The notes under the pieces: model-generated
The model's input: the letters and a program-made list of their open reading frames with translations, nothing else
The model's database searches: none
What the model was told of the DNA's origin: nothing
Made by a program: the position numbers and the translations under genes
Assembly: GCA_963676395.1 (NCBI GenBank)
Contig: OY781066.1
Location: 1,504,001-1,568,000, forward strand
DNA: 64,000 nt
Reading direction: 5' to 3'
DNA from: a bacterium
GTDB taxonomy: Bacteria; Fidelibacterota; Fidelibacteria; Fidelibacterales; Fidelibacteraceae
Part shown: positions 4,709-15,260 of the stretch, piece by piece
Layout of the letters: the number at the start of each line of letters is the position of its first letter
Position numbering within the stretch: the first letter of the stretch is position 1

Positions 4709-5359
4709 TCACGGTTTAAAACTCATGCTTTTATAGCACTCATCCCAAAATCTTAATTCCATTCTACAACTTTGCATGTACATGGTCTTCATGTCATCAC
4801 GCATGTAATAGTTGCTATGTTGAGCCGCAGATTCCACTAATTGCAACATTTGACGGACTTGCTCGGTGAATTCTTCCCCGGTATAAGTGTCCAACCAAGG
4901 CTGATAAGGATTATCTTTTACAGTATTGTTATTGAGATGAACCCCAACTTCACGATACATCCAAAAGCAGGGTAGTAATGATACTAGTCCCATTGGGTAA
5001 GGTGATAAAAATGTGACATTATCTAAAAAATTACCGTAATCATGGCAAGCGGGAAGTCTTTCTTCTACAGGAGTGATCTTAAATTTTCTAAAGAAATTAT
5101 CATGTAATTCTTTTTCGATCAGGAAGCCGTCTTCGGCAAAACCGATTAAGATATTTTTAATTTCTAGAGTGGGTGCTTTATTCGCCAATTGGAAAAGTGC
5201 TTTTGTATATGATTCAATATACAAAGCATCTTGCTGTAGATAGGTTTTAAATCGCTCGACCTCCAGTGTTCCTGCTGAGAGTTCAACATTAAAAGGATGT
5301 GTGATCATGTCGCGATACAGCGATTTGCTCATTTTCCATAATCTACCGGTGAATAACAT
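4709..5359 (-). CDS. tenA: TenA family thiaminase II / aminopyrimidine aminohydrolase
   Basis: HPF..L, YLQQDALY, LLPCFWMY (catalytic Cys), Y..W.DTY, E.RFW; in thi operon. Confidence 0.9.
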   Translation of the reverse strand: MLFTGRLWKMSKSLYRDMITHPFNVELSAGTLEVERFKTYLQQDALYIESYTKALFQLANKAPTLEIKNILIGFAEDGFLIEKELHDNFFRKFKITPVEERLPACHDYGNFLDNVTFLSPYPMGLVSLLPCFWMYREVGVHLNNNTVKDNPYQPWLDTYTGEEFTEQVRQMLQLVESAAQHSNYYMRDDMKTMYMQSCRMELRFWDECYKSMSFKP

Positions 5360-6171
5360 TAATCTTCCTTCCAGAGTTTATGGAAGTGATGAACGGGACC
5401 ATGACCGTGACCAATTTTATATTTTGATCCGGCAATGATGGCGGAATGAATATAGTCTTTTGCTGAGCGGACAGCATTTTCCAATTCCATGCCTTGTGCA
5501 AGAAAGGCAGCGATCGCTGAAGATGTAGTACAACCGGTTCCATGTGTGTTGGGTGAGTTTATGCGCTGTGCTTCCAGCCAGATGATCTTGCCATCTTTCA
5601 TCATTAGGCAGTCCGGACTTTCTTGATCTTCGAAATGTCCTCCTTTAACCAAAACGGCTTCGGGACCGAGTTTAAGCAGTTTTTTTGCACTTTTCTCAAG
5701 ATCTTCACGTGCTATGATATTGTCTCCGGTAAGTACCTCGGCTTCCGGTATATTGGGTGTGATCACTCTTGCCAGGGGAATGATCTCTTCTTTTAAAGCG
5801 TTAATGCTTTCATCTTGTAACAGTTTATCACCACTTTTAGCGACCATCACCGGATCTAGCACGATATTCCTGACGTCATATTCTTTGAGTTTTTCGGCAA
5901 TGGCTTTAATCACATCTGGAGTATTTAGCATGCCAATTTTAACCGCATCTACACCAATATCGCTGATAACGGCATCAATCTGTTTTGCCACGAATTCAGC
6001 GTTAACAGGATAAATACCTGTAACAGCTGTAGTGTTTTGCGCGGTTAAAGCCGTAATGGCAGACATGCCAAAACAGCCTAATGCCGAAAAAGTTTTTAGG
6101 TCGGCTTGTATACCGGCACCACCGCCACTGTCTGAGCCGGCAATGGTTAAAACGCGTTTATATGCTTTCAT
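5359..6171 (-). CDS. thiD: HMP/HMP-P kinase
   Basis: [37 protein letters not shown]. Confidence 0.97.
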
Positions 6172-7181
6172 GATGTCTCACTTTTAAAATGGTCAAAACC
6201 ATGTCGGTTCAAGGTGACCGGTTTATCGTTTAGAGTATATTCAAGTGTATTGGATTCCGTGATCTTCCCGATGGGGAAAAGATCATTTTTAAATTTTTTC
6301 CAATAGTCAGCTGATATTTTATCATAATTTTCGGCTTTGATAGTGCAAAGTAGGCAGTAGTCTTCACCACCGCTAGCAGCCAAGTTTAAAGCATTCCAGC
6401 CATAATCTCCGCAGACTGAATTCATGGCATCTGAAATAGGTAGTTTGTCAAGGTTGATCTTTGCACCCACAGAAGATCTTTCCATGATGCGTTTGATATC
6501 TGAATCAATACCATCCGAGACATCAATCATGGCACGAACACCTTCTTGCCCACCAAGAAAGCGGCCTTCGGGAAGATGCGGTCGAGGCAGGTTATGTGCT
6601 CTGAACATGGCGCGGGCCTCAGGAGTAACGGCGGGTAAGTTCTTTAGTACAAAATTCAGTCCGCAAGCCGATTCTCCAAGAGGAGCTGTCACACATATCA
6701 TATCACCGGGCTTTGCAGTTGAGCGAGTTTTTAAGTGCTTATTTTCAACTTTTCCTATAACCGCAATGTTGATGACCAAGTCATGTTGAGATTTTGTTGT
6801 ATCCCCGCCTAAAATGGGGCATTTGCTTTCTTTGGCAAGAAAGGATAGGCCCTCATAGAATTCTTTTAACCATTCTACATTTACTCTTTGGGGGATGCCT
6901 AAAGAAATATATGCTGACTGCGGGATACCGCCCATGGCGGCAATATCACTTAGGTTAACTGCTAGAGATTTTTGTCCTAATTCAAAGGCTGTAATTTTAT
7001 CAAAAAGAAAATGTGTGCCTTCAATTAGTAAATCGGTGGTCACGATCTGACTTTCGGTTTCCGAAAGTGGGGAAATGGCGCAATCGTCACCGATTCCGAC
7101 GATGTTATTACCAAGATGTTTGAAGAAGGGTGCGGCTACCTGATCAATAAAGCCAAATTCACCTATGTCGGATAATTTCAT
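6168..7181 (-). CDS. thiL: thiamine-monophosphate kinase
   Basis: [37 protein letters not shown]. Confidence 0.96.
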
Positions 7182-7813
7182 TTCCTACCTTTTTTCACTT
7201 CTTTCAGTAATTCGCGCGATGCGAGTTCGGGATCATCAGCTGAACAGATTGCCGATACAACGGCAATACCATCGGATCCTGCAGCTATGATTTCAGCTGT
7301 ATTTTTTTTATTGATACCACCAATAGCGACCAAAGGATGTCGCGATATTTTTCGGATCTCGCGGATGCCCTCAAGCCCCAACTCGTGATGAATATCCGTC
7401 TTAGTCGGGGTGGAGTAGATAGGACTGAGTCCAAGATAATCTACATTCAATTTTTCGGCATCAAGCGCATCTTGAATATTTTCTACGGATAACCCGATGA
7501 TAGCATCCGGTCCCATGAGTTTTCGTGCGGTTTTGTAAGGCATATCACTTTGACCAATGTGTAGGCCTTCGGCGCCAACGGCCAGGGCAATGTCAATTCT
7601 GTCGTTAATGATCAATGGAATTCCCAAAGGTGAACAGAAATTTTTTACGTCTTGGGCAATTTCTAAAAATTCCCGGGTAGTGCAATCTTTCTCACGCAAT
7701 TGTACGATGCTTGTACCACCTTTAATTGCGGCTTTGATCACTGCTTGCAAACTGCGACCTTTTGAGAGTTTGCGATCGGTAACGAGGTATAGGCTATAGT
7801 CAATATTTTTCAT
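7178..7813 (-). CDS. thiE: thiamine-phosphate synthase
   Basis: LYLVTD, QLREK, INDRIDIA, HIGQSD, TPTK, VAIGGI. Confidence 0.97.
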   Translation of the reverse strand: MKNIDYSLYLVTDRKLSKGRSLQAVIKAAIKGGTSIVQLREKDCTTREFLEIAQDVKNFCSPLGIPLIINDRIDIALAVGAEGLHIGQSDMPYKTARKLMGPDAIIGLSVENIQDALDAEKLNVDYLGLSPIYSTPTKTDIHHELGLEGIREIRKISRHPLVAIGGINKKNTAEIIAAGSDGIAVVSAICSADDPELASRELLKEVKKGRK

Positions 7814-7866
7814 AATTTTTCAACCAGCGAGCAACTTGAAGATTTAAGTCATTTTTTGTATCTTCC

Positions 7867-7936
7867 TGTTAGCTGTTAGCTGTTAGCTGTTAGCTGTTAG
7901 CTGTTAGCTGTTAGCTGTTAGCTGTTAGCTGTTAGC
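7867..7936. repeat. perfect heptamer tandem repeat (TGTTAGC)x10
   Basis: Ten exact copies abutting the thiM stop codon. Confidence 0.97.
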
Positions 7937-8725
7937 TTATTTTAAATATTTTTCCACATCTTCTTTACTCATATTATAAAAAGCATCAAGAAGATATAGT
8001 TGCAATGTGCCGGGACCTTCGGCTTTTTCTTCGGCCATTTCGGCGGCAATACCCATTACAGCCATTGCAGATGCAGCGGCTTGAAGTTTATCTTCCACGA
8101 CTGCTGCAAACGCTCCTGTGATCGCAGTTGCCGTACACCCCAAACCGGTGACCTTTGGCATCATGTCTGAGCCGCCTTCAATACTGATAACTTTATCACC
8201 ATCGGTCAAGTGATCGGTTTTCCCGGAAATGGTAACGATGCACTTGTACTTTTTGGCAAGAGATTTTGCCGCATCCATGGCAGAATCTGAACTGGCCGTA
8301 CTATCAACACCTTTGGTTTTAATGGCAGCATTTTCAAGTGCCATGATTTCAGAAGCATTTGCTCTGATAATAGTAGGATTAGCTTTTGATAGGAGCCTTA
8401 AACAACTTTCACTACGATAGGGGGTTGCCCCTGCGCCAACGGGATCAATAACAATGGGAATACCTTTTTTGTTTGCAGCTCTTATAGCAAGCTCCATTGC
8501 ATCTATCCATTTGTCACTTAATGTACCAATATTGATTACTAGAGATGATGCAATTTTGATCATATCTATAACCTCATTGCCGGCATGTGCCATTACGGGA
8601 GATGCACCAATTGCCAAAAGCGCATTGGCGGTATTATTCATGACAACATAATTGGTTATATTATGAACGAGAGGTGAGGACTCTCTTACCGTTTTTAAAT
8701 CGTTCCATACTTGCTTTGCATTCAT
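7937..8725 (-). CDS. thiM: hydroxyethylthiazole kinase
   Basis: PLVHNITNYV, GASPVMA, INIGTL, DPVGAGAT, VTGLGC. Confidence 0.97.
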   Translation of the reverse strand: MNAKQVWNDLKTVRESSPLVHNITNYVVMNNTANALLAIGASPVMAHAGNEVIDMIKIASSLVINIGTLSDKWIDAMELAIRAANKKGIPIVIDPVGAGATPYRSESCLRLLSKANPTIIRANASEIMALENAAIKTKGVDSTASSDSAMDAAKSLAKKYKCIVTISGKTDHLTDGDKVISIEGGSDMMPKVTGLGCTATAITGAFAAVVEDKLQAAASAMAVMGIAAEMAEEKAEGPGTLQLYLLDAFYNMSKEDVEKYLK

Positions 8726-8726
8726 C

Positions 8727-9446
8727 TTATTTTCCTTTTACTGCTGAAATTGCAACGTAATCACCACGGTCATAACCTTCTACCGGTTCTTCGGCTTCCA
8801 TATCTGAATATGCCGGGTGTTTTGTTAATGTTTGAGCAAAGTTAAAGTCAGAAAAACCGGATTTTTCCAACATGTTTACTTTTTCGGGAGTGCTTCGCCA
8901 ATTTGATTCCGCTACAAATTCTATGGGATAAGCGTTGGGAGGTTTTGCACCCGCAAAATATTGGTGGTCCCAAGTTCCTGTTTCTTTTACAAGATTATAA
9001 AGTAAACCGTACGATGATTCTTTAGGTACATCCAAAACAAGAATTTTACCACCAGGTTTTAAAGCTTTATAAGCATTGTCGAAGGCTTTTTGAAGATCGT
9101 TGATATATGATGGTGTTCCATTAAAGATCACCGTGTCAAATTCTTCTTGTCCAAAATCCGTATCTTCGGCAGTACCAATCCGCACCTTCATACCACGTTG
9201 AGTTGCTATTTGTGCCATGCCTTGGGCGGGTTCAATACCTTCTTCTATAAGGATTTCGTAATCGCGTTTTAAAATAGCTTCAAATAAACCGCTGCCGCAA
9301 CCGATCGATAATGCTTTGCCGGGTGTCTCCAAGAAATGGGCCAGAAGGCGGACTTCGGATCTTAGTACATTTTCATTTTTCAGGAACCATTCATCGTAAG
9401 CGTTAGCAAATTGAGTAAATGCACCTTCTTTGACTTTTTTTCTCAT
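8727..9446 (-). CDS. class I SAM-dependent methyltransferase
   Basis: AYDEWF, SIGCGSG motif I, LKPGGK; start at MRKKV (GGAG SD). Confidence 0.88.
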   Translation of the reverse strand: MRKKVKEGAFTQFANAYDEWFLKNENVLRSEVRLLAHFLETPGKALSIGCGSGLFEAILKRDYEILIEEGIEPAQGMAQIATQRGMKVRIGTAEDTDFGQEEFDTVIFNGTPSYINDLQKAFDNAYKALKPGGKILVLDVPKESSYGLLYNLVKETGTWDHQYFAGAKPPNAYPIEFVAESNWRSTPEKVNMLEKSGFSDFNFAQTLTKHPAYSDMEAEEPVEGYDRGDYVAISAVKGK

Positions 9447-9630: not shown

Positions 9631-9689
9631 GAAAACCCACGATTCGTTAATCGACTTGGGAGGTTGTCGGAATTAACAGAATCGTGGGT
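9631..9689 (-). terminator. long imperfect hairpin after TonB receptor
   Basis: ACCCACGATTC-GTTAAT-CGAC...GTCG-ATTAAC-GAATCGTGGGT followed by T4 on minus strand. Confidence 0.55.
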
Positions 9690-9711: not shown

Positions 9712-11913
9712 TTATTTAATCGTAAAAGGTAAAATCAAACTAAAACTAAAGTTTCTACCTAAATTACCGTATCCCAAGCCTTTGAGAGTGGACAAATGAT
9801 CAATATAGTATTCATTCAAGATATTGTTTGCCTGAATGGAAACGGTGATAGGTTGACCTTTAATGATGATGTCGCCACCAACTTTGGCATTCACTACAAA
9901 GTAGGGATTGGTTTCTGTTTCAAATCGCGCGGGTTTATCTTGTCTTGCGGCATAAGTTCCACCGATATTGACATAGACCTTGTTAAAGAAAAGTATATCC
10001 GATCTTTGCAGGCCAATATCAAATTTTAGTTTATTTTGTGGAATAAAAGGCAGGTACATTCCATCGGTTTGCTGTCCTAAGGTGTATGTATAAGCAAATT
10101 CGGCAATGAGCCATTCCCAGGGAGTAATGGCTAAGTTAAACTCTGTGCCAAAGATAGAAGCATCGGTTTGTTCGTATTGATAAATATCAATACCCCCGGT
10201 AGTTGTATCTGCTGTCGGAGCCATGTAAATATAATTATTGATCAGGTGGTAATAAGCCGAAGCATCTACCATGAGCCAACCCGAATGGAAATGTGCATTG
10301 ATATCAGTTTCGTAACTGCGCTGAGATTTCAAATCAATATTTCCTATTTCGTAACGATTGCCATGCATTCCATTTTGAGTCATTTCTGCCAAATTGGGTG
10401 TGCGGTAAGCGGTAGCTATATTTCCACGTAATAAAAGCGATGATGAGAGCTGGTAAGTTGCACCCAGTGATGCGGAAACATTACCGTAGTTGGTGTCGAT
10501 CACGGTAGCTGTTTCGGCATAGACATCTCGATGATCGTAACGGAGACCTGTTTGTAAATGAAATTTTTCTTCATTCCCATAGCGCATTAATGCGAATGCT
10601 GAAATGTCACTGACATTGGCATCCGGTAAGACGTGATTGGGAGCCTCGTGATTACGGTTGGTTTTATAAGTACCTTGTATTCCTACAGTATATTCCGATG
10701 CCAATGAAGAAGGTAGATGGGTTTTTAGTTCGTAACTTAAAGTATTCAGGTCCATGTCTACCAACTCAAACGCGGGTGTGCTGTTGCTGGTTTGCAGTCT
10801 GCGATTATTCATCTGGTAGGCAGCATTGATATCTACTTTATAATTATTTAAAAATAATGTATTACGTGTTGAGATCACATGATTGCTCAAATCCTGATAC
10901 CAGAATTCGTTTATCCGATCATTTTCAGCGATCAAGCTTAGAACATCCGGAACAGACATACCAAGTTTATCCCGGTTATAATCGTAGTAGATCCTGAAGA
11001 GTCCGAAAGAATTATGCAATCCGGTGCTGGCTTTAAAACTTGCGGTGTTAAAACGAGTATTGGGTATATAATTATTCGTTCCGTCTATATAATCTTTATG
11101 AGATTTTATACCACCACGAAGAGTCCAATATATTGATTCACCACTGCCTTTTAATCCAAGATTACTGACAAGTCCCATGGTATTTGAATGTGTTTGCAGG
11201 TTATAATCACCCACTATCTTTCCGACAGGTGCGGGCTTTTCTTTAACCACATTGATAACACCACCAACTGCATCAGAACCGTATAACAAGGAAGCCGGAC
11301 CTTTGATTATTTCAATATGGTCAATACCAAATTCGTCTATTAAAAAGGGGTGATTCTCCGAAAATTGAAAATTTTCGAGTTTAACACCATTGTTCAGCAT
11401 AAGGATATTGGTCATGGACAAACCGCGAATAACTGGCTTACCAACACCGCTTCCCTTAGCTATCATATCAACGCCGGCTATAGAGCTGATTGCTTCGGTA
11501 AACGAGGGTGTACCGCTTTGAGCGATCTCATTGGGTTTAAGAGTCTCAATGTTAATTGCGTTTTCATGTTGACTGGAATACGAGCCACCCGAAACAATAA
11601 TTTCAGGTGATTTTAAAACAACAGGCTTGAGTTTAACATTAAGATTTGCTTTGTCTTCTGTTAACTGGAGAGAAAAGACTTGACTGGCAAAGCCGATATA
11701 TGAAAATTCAATTTTGATTTTTCCTTGTGGGATATCGCTGAGTTTAAAATGCCCGTCTTCATCTGTCATGCATCCTTTTCCCTGTTCGGGAAGAAAAACA
11801 TTAACATAGGGTATTGTCTTACCGGTTTTACTGCTTTGTACAACACCGGATATTGAATGTTGTGCAAATAAAATAGAAACACAAAGTAAGATGGCTAATA
11901 ATATTTTTTTCAT
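9712..11913 (-). CDS. TonB-dependent receptor with N-terminal carboxypeptidase-regulatory-like domain; probable metal uptake
   Basis: Signal peptide, plug motifs KPVIRGL and IEIIKGPASLLYGSDAVGGVIN, C-terminal NILN.YY.DHLS..K..GRN. Confidence 0.93.
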   Translation of the reverse strand: MKKILLAILLCVSILFAQHSISGVVQSSKTGKTIPYVNVFLPEQGKGCMTDEDGHFKLSDIPQGKIKIEFSYIGFASQVFSLQLTEDKANLNVKLKPVVLKSPEIIVSGGSYSSQHENAINIETLKPNEIAQSGTPSFTEAISSIAGVDMIAKGSGVGKPVIRGLSMTNILMLNNGVKLENFQFSENHPFLIDEFGIDHIEIIKGPASLLYGSDAVGGVINVVKEKPAPVGKIVGDYNLQTHSNTMGLVSNLGLKGSGESIYWTLRGGIKSHKDYIDGTNNYIPNTRFNTASFKASTGLHNSFGLFRIYYDYNRDKLGMSVPDVLSLIAENDRINEFWYQDLSNHVISTRNTLFLNNYKVDINAAYQMNNRRLQTSNSTPAFELVDMDLNTLSYELKTHLPSSLASEYTVGIQGTYKTNRNHEAPNHVLPDANVSDISAFALMRYGNEEKFHLQTGLRYDHRDVYAETATVIDTNYGNVSASLGATYQLSSSLLLRGNIATAYRTPNLAEMTQNGMHGNRYEIGNIDLKSQRSYETDINAHFHSGWLMVDASAYYHLINNYIYMAPTADTTTGGIDIYQYEQTDASIFGTEFNLAITPWEWLIAEFAYTYTLGQQTDGMYLPFIPQNKLKFDIGLQRSDILFFNKVYVNIGGTYAARQDKPARFETETNPYFVVNAKVGGDIIIKGQPITVSIQANNILNEYYIDHLSTLKGLGYGNLGRNFSFSLILPFTIK

Positions 11914-11917
11914 CAAT

Positions 11918-12003
11918 TATTCCTTTAATAAAATGATTTTTTTAGATTTTGACGAACTGATAAGTATGTCAAAAAAGTAGGAAGTAATATTTTATCAGGA
12001 ACA
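11918..12003 (-). promoter_or_regulatory. predicted SD-sequestering RNA stem between uORF end and TonB receptor start
   Basis: UGUUCCU-G-AUAAAAU (12003-11989) complementary to AUUUUAU-UAA-AGGAAUA (11934-11918); inner hairpin TTTTGAC/GTCAAAA (11947-11974). Confidence 0.6.
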
Positions 12004-12345
12004 TTCGGGTGGAGCCCGAAGCTTGATGAACGATGGATTTAATGTTGAGAGTTTTAGAGATTTATATTGAAGGGGAATGTCTATAAGATCATTGCGATCT
12101 ATTGATAGGAAAAAGTAATCACATTGTAGACTATGTGGAAATTCATAAGCACAAACAGGACATTGTTTTTCATAGTGTTTCATGACCGGACTGTGTTCAT
12201 GATGAATGTCATGATGGTGGTGGGGAATGTATAAGGTATGAGTTGTTTGAAATAAAATAGGAAAAAAGAAGAGGCTAATAAGACAAATTGCCAAAAGTCT
12301 ATTGTGTATAATTGTTCTATTATTATTCAATTTCCAATTTTTCAT
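11995..12345 (-). CDS. DUF2946-like leader protein: TM/signal, His-rich tract, CxxC, C-terminal LRAPP
   Basis: LLAICLISLFFFPILF; HHHHDIHHEH; CPVC; LRAPPECS*. Confidence 0.8.
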   Translation of the reverse strand: MKNWKLNNNRTIIHNRLLAICLISLFFFPILFQTTHTLYIPHHHHDIHHEHSPVMKHYEKQCPVCAYEFPHSLQCDYFFLSIDRNDLIDIPLQYKSLKLSTLNPSFIKLRAPPECS

Positions 12346-12351
12346 AGTGAT

Positions 12352-12380
12352 ATCTTATTGATAAATATTATTTTGAGCAA
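12352..12380 (-). promoter_or_regulatory. sigma70-like promoter implying leaderless uORF mRNA
   Basis: TTGCTC-N17-TAAGAT-N6-ATG; no SD. Confidence 0.55.
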
Positions 12381-14146: not shown

Positions 14147-15136
14147 TTAATGTTCATTTAAATATTTTGCTATTCTATCCTTTACGTTTTGGCGCAAATT
14201 TTCATAAAAGAAAGCATAATCATATCGATGATAAACACCTTTTCCAAAGACAGTATTGCCCGGAGCGAGTTGATTTGGGTCAGGAGTGGATGTTATAACT
14301 ACACCTCGCGATAGATCAAGAGAAGCGTCTGCAAAATGAGAAACATGTGATATGACACCTAGAGAATCCCAAAGGATAGAACCAAGATTTTCTGAGGCAG
14401 GGGCCAGAGTATCGTCGCGACGCCAATTGATGGGGTTGATTGCATTTGCACCTTCTAAAACAATCGGATTTCCGGGTTCACCAATTTGAGGTGCTTCGGT
14501 ATTATAGGAAATAATAACTCCTATGTCGTTGGAAGAATCTGCAAAACTCAAATGTGGATTATCTGAAAGGTAAGTGTCTGTAACAGAATAACCTATCACA
14601 TACGCTGCTATCATACGTTTGTAAACAGCCGGGTGATCTGCCATGTAGTCGGAAAGTAAGAATAACAGAAGCGCAGAACCCTGAGAATGTCCGGCAAGTA
14701 TAAAGGGACGATTATTATTTAAATATTTAATGTAATACCGAAAAGCGTTTTTGATACTTGAATAGGGGATGTCTCCCACAAGACTATCTTTTTGAGCGCT
14801 AGATAAAAAAAGCGTACCGGCGGCATCGGCCTGGCGATAAAATGGTGCATAAATATTGGCTAAAGAATCAAAGATAGTAGCCTGGCGAGAAAAAGGAACC
14901 GATGCACCTTGTATCATCATGGAATTATTAAGTTCACAAATCAGGGGATCCGTATCATTCACTTTGGTATAAACCGTGGGGTAGACATAAAAAACATCCA
15001 CATTTTTATCGGGACTTTGTGGCAAAGAAAGCCAATGTGAGTTTTCGGCATAAATAGATTTACTTGAAAATATATTGCAAGAAATCAGAATAAGAGTGCA
15101 AATAAATAAAAATAATATGTGTTTAAATTTTGTCAT
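14147..15136 (-). CDS. DUF3089-type alpha/beta-hydrolase lipoprotein
   Basis: Lipobox LISC; DVFYVYPT, APFYRQ, GHSQG nucleophile elbow, YH.YDY. Confidence 0.85.
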   Translation of the reverse strand: MTKFKHILFLFICTLILISCNIFSSKSIYAENSHWLSLPQSPDKNVDVFYVYPTVYTKVNDTDPLICELNNSMMIQGASVPFSRQATIFDSLANIYAPFYRQADAAGTLFLSSAQKDSLVGDIPYSSIKNAFRYYIKYLNNNRPFILAGHSQGSALLLFLLSDYMADHPAVYKRMIAAYVIGYSVTDTYLSDNPHLSFADSSNDIGVIISYNTEAPQIGEPGNPIVLEGANAINPINWRRDDTLAPASENLGSILWDSLGVISHVSHFADASLDLSRGVVITSTPDPNQLAPGNTVFGKGVYHRYDYAFFYENLRQNVKDRIAKYLNEH

Positions 15137-15148
15137 TATTCTTTATTT

Positions 15149-15260
15149 TTCACTGTTCACTGTTCACTGTTCACTGTTCACTGTTCACTGTTCACTGTTC
15201 ACTGTTCACTGTTCACTGTTCACTGTTCACTGTTCACTGTTCACTGTTCACTGTTCACTG
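15149..15260. repeat. perfect heptamer tandem repeat (TTCACTG)x16
   Basis: 16 exact copies; supplies last codons and TGA stop of the 15248-15532 gene. Confidence 0.97.

Follow-up and report, generated by a model that had tools for sequence, protein, structure and literature searches.

A candidate ribosome-arrest leader preceding a ZnuD-like TonB-dependent receptor gene in a member of the Fidelibacteraceae

CruR of Bordetella pertussis (Bp2923, PF11162) is a small exported-type upstream open reading frame (uORF) that heads the gene of the TonB transporter BfrG/CrtA; its arrest has been demonstrated (PMC12992588), the spacing of 45 +/-2 residues between its CxxC and its C-terminal RAPP is functional, and its export signal is dispensable (PMC9426467). 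In CutF, the leader of Rhodobacter capsulatus cutFOG, which carries CxxxC and a PPP-type end, a copper-induced stall of the ribosome on the exported leader melts a stem over the downstream initiation site and turns on a detoxifying oxidase (PMC9973294; bioRxiv 10.1101/2025.02.05.636593). Here, a 64,000-nt stretch of a Fidelibacteraceae genome (assembly GCA_963676395.1, contig OY781066.1, positions 1,504,001 to 1,568,000; hereafter the window) was analysed around a RAPP-ending leader and the TonB-dependent receptor gene that follows it on the minus strand (Table 1). The two genes probably form a metal-uptake unit under a nascent-chain sensor, a ribosome-arrest switch of translation; by comparison with the known systems, the leader most likely works like CruR in anatomy and target, with a CutF-type output through stem melting.

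The leader and its homologues

The first-pass annotation had described a leader with a hydrophobic N-terminus, a His tract, CPVC and a terminal RAPP about 80 nt before the receptor gene, and all of these features are confirmed, with 81 nt between the leader stop and the receptor ATG (11913). The RAPP motif, which is followed by three codons and the stop, is seen once across 1749 long ORFs of the host. As in CruR, a small exported-type uORF heads a TonB-dependent importer, an arrest relieved by the ligand is predicted, and CxxC lies 44 residues before RAPP (45 in CruR); the features of the CruR family found here are thus the spacing of about 45 residues, an N-terminal export signal (by hydropathy) and a position before a metal-homeostasis gene. 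The leader differs from CruR in the lack of a DUF2946 score and in an extra His tract, with nine His among the 31 residues up to and including the CxxC position. Additionally, only a short gap separates it from its target and a stem lies over the start codon, whereas CruR has a 162-nt Rho attenuator; the mRNA here is probably leaderless, whereas CruR has a 45-nt leader; and its target is ZnuD-like rather than CrtA-like, CrtA having been placed in Proteobacteria (PMC12914433). In comparison with CutF, a stem over the downstream initiation site likewise lies within reach of the stalled ribosome, whereas the CxxxC motif and the detoxification-gene target of CutF are replaced by CxxC/RAPP and an importer, and the predicted response has the opposite sign.

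By score, the leader does not belong to DUF2946, and its resemblance to CruR is one of features. A Pfam search of the leader gives no match, the PF11162 (DUF2946) cut-off not being reached; PF11162 matches 2 of 52 leader homologues with a best E of only 0.14, and a six-frame search of the host genome with the same model returns no match. In a protein-cluster atlas, DUF2946 is carried by 14% of the members of the closest cluster with a Pfam annotation, which is a lead only. A single-sequence homologue search with the leader yields two candidates, none at E<=1, and its relatives were obtained through the receptor-anchored route alone. The profile A2, for which 52 leaders were used, matches 3855 clusters with E<=1e-3, and Pfam names none of the family.

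The collection of homologous uORF-receptor pairs, which had been proposed as a check, recovers the leader widely. Via receptor homology, 160 loci were fetched and analysed together with this locus and locus L002; the receptor N-terminus is present in 155 loci, 147 of which have at least 500 nt of upstream DNA. An ORF ending in R[AG]PP lies no more than 400 nt upstream of the receptor in 134 of these 147 loci, mostly from Bacteroidota, and two of the 13 remaining loci have a leader further upstream (566 and 778 nt). After removal of two duplicates and one truncated leader, 131 leaders were analysed (57 RAPP, 74 RGPP), with a median gap of 58 nt to the receptor. A hydrophobic N-terminal stretch (15-residue window >=2.0) is found in 129/131 leaders, and all 131 have at least three His, with a median of five, within the 31-residue segment that ends with the CxxC position. 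The CruR-like anatomy is also borne out in the family, with CxxC 44 or 45 residues before the Arg in 71/131 leaders, most of the others keeping only the first Cys.

The second Cys is thus missing in approximately 45% of the homologues, and RAPP leaders have been reported also to monitor Sec/YidC and to precede thiol-oxidoreductase genes (PMC12992588), which would suit a leader that monitors a non-metal signal, either export capacity or the thiol-disulfide state via CxxC, and tunes the receptor. This reading is improbable, because every analysed leader has a His tract, the target is a metal-type receptor, and related Marinisomatota leaders precede His/Asp-rich exported proteins. As for metal sensing, the first-pass annotation had assigned it to an exported His/CxxC segment; the segment is conserved, whereas export itself need not apply in view of the dispensable signal of CruR.

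The leader class, thought at first to be undescribed in this lineage, has already been described bioinformatically for Bacteroidota and for TonB receptors: CutF-like proteins are listed in Bacteroidota (40% normalised) with other metals suggested (PMC9973294), TonB-class RAPP uORFs are found throughout Gram-negatives (PMC12992588), and the present leader fits both sets by its features. The accessible parts of these two papers report no start-codon-masking stem, leaderless transcripts, ZnuD-type target or tested Bacteroidota member. A literature search of incomplete coverage returned no tested Bacteroidota member and no zinc-responsive arrest leader.

The RNA fold over the receptor start

Folding of the minus strand from 12030 to 11900 gives a minimum free energy (MFE) structure identical to the centroid (-30.2 kcal/mol, z -5.35, 0/200 shuffles as stable), in which both helices of the first-pass annotation are found where it had placed them. 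Two further elements are absent from that annotation, namely an outer 8-bp helix in which the AUG of the receptor is sequestered and a small hairpin spanning the RAPP codons (12020-12004). In the free RNA, 11.7 kcal/mol is needed to open the initiation region of the receptor (-15..+6); of 150 random host genes, with a median of 4.7 kcal/mol, a single one has a cost this high or higher. With the stall footprint forced unpaired, the cost falls to 5.2 kcal/mol. The stalled model uses a 31-nt ribosome footprint, a size taken from general knowledge, around the first Pro codon, and covers approximately 12027-11997. The P-site placement follows the toeprint of CruR, in which the two Pro codons occupy the P and A sites (PMC12992588).

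These results suggest a mechanism in four steps. A leaderless mRNA would begin at the leader ATG, which is moderately supported, and the ribosome would arrest while the P site holds the first Pro of RAPP, as expected from CruR, ApdA and ApdP. The arrested ribosome would then cover the pairing core of the anti-Shine-Dalgarno (anti-SD) arm and most of the anti-AUG arm, an arrangement that is shown in silico and is conserved, so that the opening cost would fall from an extreme to an ordinary value and the receptor would be translated. The His tract and CxxC would then lie just beyond the exit tunnel, and metal bound there may, by analogy with CruR and with a fixed ruler of 44 residues, exert a pull that releases the arrest; the ribosome would terminate three codons on, the stem would re-form and receptor translation would stop, probably followed by Rho-dependent polarity. 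The opposite polarity, in which metal would lengthen the stall and thereby turn the receptor on, is known from CutF, where the stall melts an SD-masking stem when copper is present (PMC9973294; bioRxiv 2025.02.05.636593); here it is very improbable, given an importer as target and a strong RAPP motif, refractory to elongation factor P, with the spacing of CruR.

Table 1. Features of the leader-receptor unit (positions in the window)
Feature	Position	Strand	Basis
Putative -35 hexamer, 3/6 consensus, weak	12375..12380	-	Sequence
Putative -10 hexamer, ending 6 nt before the leader ATG	12352..12357	-	Sequence and host statistics
Leader ORF, 116 aa, RAPP arrest-type uORF	11995..12345	-	Homologue profile and receptor-linked conservation
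Hydrophobic export/anchor segment, residues 17-31	12253..12297	-	Mean Kyte-Doolittle 2.85 (15-residue window); hydropathy only
His tract, residues 42-51	12193..12222	-	H42 nearly invariant among aligned leaders
CPVC, residues 62-65	12151..12162	-	C62 invariant in 52/52 aligned leaders
RAPP codons, residues 110-113; predicted P-site Pro codon 12012-12010	12007..12018	-	R, P, P invariant in aligned leaders
Anti-AUG arm (outer helix, with 11916-11909), leader codons just 5' of RAPP	12023..12030	-	MFE/centroid; 5' arm duplex rank 0.019 among swapped pairs
Anti-SD arm (with 11934-11918, around the SD-like AGGA), last leader codons, stop and next bases	11989..12003	-	MFE/centroid; 3' arm duplex rank 0.019 among swapped pairs
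Intergenic hairpin enclosed by the anti-SD helix	11947..11974	-	MFE/centroid
Receptor translation-initiation region, masked by both arms; SD-like AGGA 11924-11921, ATG 11913-11911	11909..11934	-	Opening cost
TonB-dependent receptor, ZnuD-like subfamily, 733 aa	9712..11913	-	Pfam; best PDB sequence match ZnuD; Foldseek
Strong hairpin and U run 3' of the receptor, probable terminator of the two-gene unit	9631..9689	-	z -6.64, 0/200 shuffles

The pairing was compared across a close clade (n=36, mostly Bacteroidales) and a distant clade (n=95, mostly Flavobacteriaceae). In a duplex test, the stall footprint (-20..+22) was paired with the cognate initiation region and ranked against swapped pairs; the cognate duplex is within the best 5% in 41/131 loci, compared with 9, 5 and 8/131 for three upstream control windows, and the rank of this locus is 0.004. 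The pairing profile has its maximum at -20..-5 for close-clade loci and at +5..+15 for distant-clade loci, and this locus uses both arms. Additionally, the last leader codons were recoded synonymously, weighted by local codon use, in loci with gaps <130 nt; native masking exceeds that of recoded sequences at p<=0.05 in 20/31 close and 41/79 distant loci, and likewise at this locus (1/100).

The leader end had been proposed to mask the ribosome-binding site of the receptor. The masking is found and is larger than claimed, as it includes the AUG, and the masking strand lies under the predicted footprint in silico. An SD-like word is present in only 4/131 receptor homologues, and the SD-less ones bury the AUG instead; the conserved feature that is masked is therefore the start-codon region and not the SD. 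Start-site structure is reported to tune initiation in SD-less Flavobacterium (PMC6847099).

Several observations weigh against this mechanism. When swaps are restricted to the same clade, the cognate duplex is within the best 5% in 8/36 close and 26/95 distant loci, so that the close-clade signal is reduced; the stall lowers the opening cost by at least 3 kcal/mol in only 56/128 loci; an AU-rich hairpin persists over the AUG in the stalled model; and kinship between loci means that the counts are not independent. Strict covariation is not supported, as no single pairing register has many compensatory changes, the helices are spread over several registers, and at registers -15, -9 and +13 pairing is often equally good in swapped combinations.

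The same sensor may instead act mainly through Rho-dependent termination, with the stem secondary, as CruR works through Rho (PMC9426467). The host encodes Rho, the last 120 nt of the leader have a C>G skew (0.44 here, positive in 94-99% of homologues, vs about -0.1 in receptor genes), and some homologues have gaps of 150-350 nt and change little on stalling. This main output is unlikely, since the skew can stem from His/Pro/Ser codons, the median gap is far shorter than the 162 nt of CruR, and the synonymous codon choice favours masking of the receptor start, for which Rho alone has no need; the two outputs are not mutually exclusive. An Rfam scan of the window finds no RNA family in the leader region and one tRNA only in the whole window, and a riboswitch before the receptor or the thiamine genes, including a thiamine pyrophosphate (TPP) element, was ruled out on this basis.

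Downstream of the receptor, a thiamine salvage cluster (methyltransferase, thiM, thiE, thiL-like, thiD and tenA; 4709-9446, minus strand) has no TPP riboswitch at the gathering threshold. Control of this cluster by the leader was rejected in view of the strong hairpin after the receptor and the patchy occurrence of thiM (2/32 family genomes); a simple terminator scan did not call the hairpin.

The receptor and the candidate metal

The best solved relative of the receptor by profile is ZnuD (E 1e-27 and 1e-44, 16-18% identity), and the top four Foldseek matches of the receptor model are also ZnuD, whereas the CrtA structure 9RVQ matches at E 3e-7 only. The model has a pLDDT of 66, with low confidence for plug residues 98-225, and therefore cannot show a metal site. 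ZnuD is controlled by Zur. The ZnuD of Neisseria meningitidis (PDB 4RDR), formerly mistaken for a haem receptor, binds zinc through Asp99, His100, Glu340 and His499 (PMC4557270). The plug His and loop His of this site are kept: His188 and His517 align with His100 and His499 and are invariant in 121/121 homologues. At positions 187/188/373/517, the receptor family displays three predicted metal-site types, E-H-E-H in 85/89 distant members, H-H-H-H in 20/32 close members and N-H-L-H in the subclade of this locus, which suggests, from sequence, substrate shifts under the same leader type.

The zinc reading is weakened by Asn187 and Leu373 at the Asp99 and Glu340 positions (373 was matched to Glu340 by eye), where ZnuD-like Flavobacteriaceae receptors have Glu/Glu. 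Additionally, the NCBIfam ZnuD model NF038289 gives 117.8 bits against a cut-off of 950, and the haem-receptor model gives a slightly higher 134.9 bits, both far below cut-off. The downstream neighbours, scanned for 34 of 41 extracted homologous receptors, are mutually unrelated and give no clue to the metal. A receptor homologue in the H-clade range without a leader (L043:1-3981) lies 4 nt behind a gene for a 637-aa protein whose C-terminus is FeoB-like by eye, a hint of iron linkage. The zinc-responsive TonB receptors of the Riemerella zntR paper (PMC11960050) could not be tied to this receptor family by their locus tags.

The host genome (95% complete, one contig) was searched for metal proteins. 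No match to COX1, COX2 or a multicopper oxidase is found, nor any to NiFe hydrogenase, LarA or urease; a search for nosZ lacked a positive control and was not counted. One ZnuA-family protein is encoded, and the two Fur-family genes adjoin a feoB-like gene and a peroxiredoxin gene, a context which suggests that they are Fur and PerR and that Zur is absent. Because the receptor is ZnuD-like and the host lacks detectable copper oxidases, nickel enzymes and Zur, zinc is the best guess for the sensed metal, held tentatively. Copper and an iron- or haem-linked signal are each a good deal less likely, and nickel or cobalt somewhat less likely again, nickel being disfavoured by the absence of NiFe hydrogenase, urease and LarA matches. 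The preference for nickel, zinc or cobalt over copper in the first-pass annotation thus stands insofar as a non-copper metal is probable, and is weakened for nickel.

Promoter, origin and related leaders

A leaderless promoter had been read from the hexamers before the leader. They are 17 nt apart and spaced as described, and host statistics agree; the hexamers are weak, with 7/12 sigma-70 consensus positions, and the promoter scanner does not list them. Among 477 SD-less host first genes, TAnnnT ends 5 or 6 nt before the ATG in 39 and 39 cases, compared with 9-26 at other spacings, and in 4 and 1 of 431 host SD genes; TTG lies 16-18 nt upstream of 30/78 candidate leaderless -10 boxes vs 17/89 at control spacings. 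The host itself uses SD pairing, with an SD-like word in 386/759 long ATG genes and an intact 16S tail. The Bacteroidota promoter box TAnnTTTG, which occupies -12..-5 (PMC6847099), ends 4-6 nt before the leader start in 40/95 distant-clade loci (36 with ATG only) vs 4/348 neighbouring first genes; its occurrence in 0/36 close-clade loci counts against a leaderless start across the family. Leaderless mRNAs account for approximately 5.5% in F. psychrophilum (PMC9723704). The leader mRNA is likely leaderless or near-leaderless, the support being statistical. The interval between the upstream flavin adenine dinucleotide (FAD) oxidoreductase gene and the leader has no terminator-like fold (z 0.84), so that read-through from that gene into the leader may occur.

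Neither a receptor orthologue nor the leader is found in any of the 32 family genomes searched, and the best receptor matches are approximately 60% identical, the named ones being mostly Bacteroidales. Together with the receptor tree (a quick IQ-TREE run), this indicates that the unit was likely acquired horizontally, probably from a Bacteroidota-like donor. The same absence from all 32 genomes would also fit a non-functional relic of the transfer, which we consider highly improbable: all leader motifs are intact, and adaptation is suggested by a -10 box of the host type and by an SD for which a complementary anti-SD arm exists, in contrast to the SD-less Bacteroidota homologues.

Distant leaders occur in 29/300 other genomes of the phylum at E<=0.001, and several precede His/Asp-rich exported proteins. 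In loci L197-L221, from other phylum genomes, the genes that follow related His-rich RAPP leaders encode unannotated lipoproteins rich in His/Asp, outer-membrane-type proteins that bear His, and other TonB receptors; some leader stems cover an SD. Outside the window, the host has another small, His-rich ORF that ends in RAPP, lacks CxxC and is not matched by profile A2 (G000:C1:1773920-1774381, minus strand). It lies 137 nt upstream of a gene for a MATE-like membrane transporter, an identity assigned by eye from the N-terminal sequence; opening the stem over that gene start costs 10.4 kcal/mol free and 6.9 stalled. Within the window, a short tandem repeat at 15130-15260 (plus strand) reads FTVHCSL repeated in two frames and lies between convergent genes.

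It is conceivable, though doubtful at present, that a large unnamed family of leaderless His/Cys RAPP leaders in the FCB group constitutes a zinc-sensing translational switch replacing Zur, in which the codons of the arrest peptide pair with the importer start codon (the arm lying before RAPP in Bacteroidales, at the stop in Flavobacteriaceae, and in both places here) and leader and receptor sites are retuned together for different metals. In the literature found, ribosome-arrest metal sensing has been demonstrated for copper only (CruR, CutF). Should the family respond to zinc, it would represent the first arrest switch of this kind for a non-copper metal, and the reading is directly testable in a tractable genus, Flavobacterium, whose homologues have a ZnuD-like receptor with four ligands. 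The switch, if true, would explain Zur-independent control of an outer-membrane metal importer in Bacteroidota-type bacteria without SD pairing.

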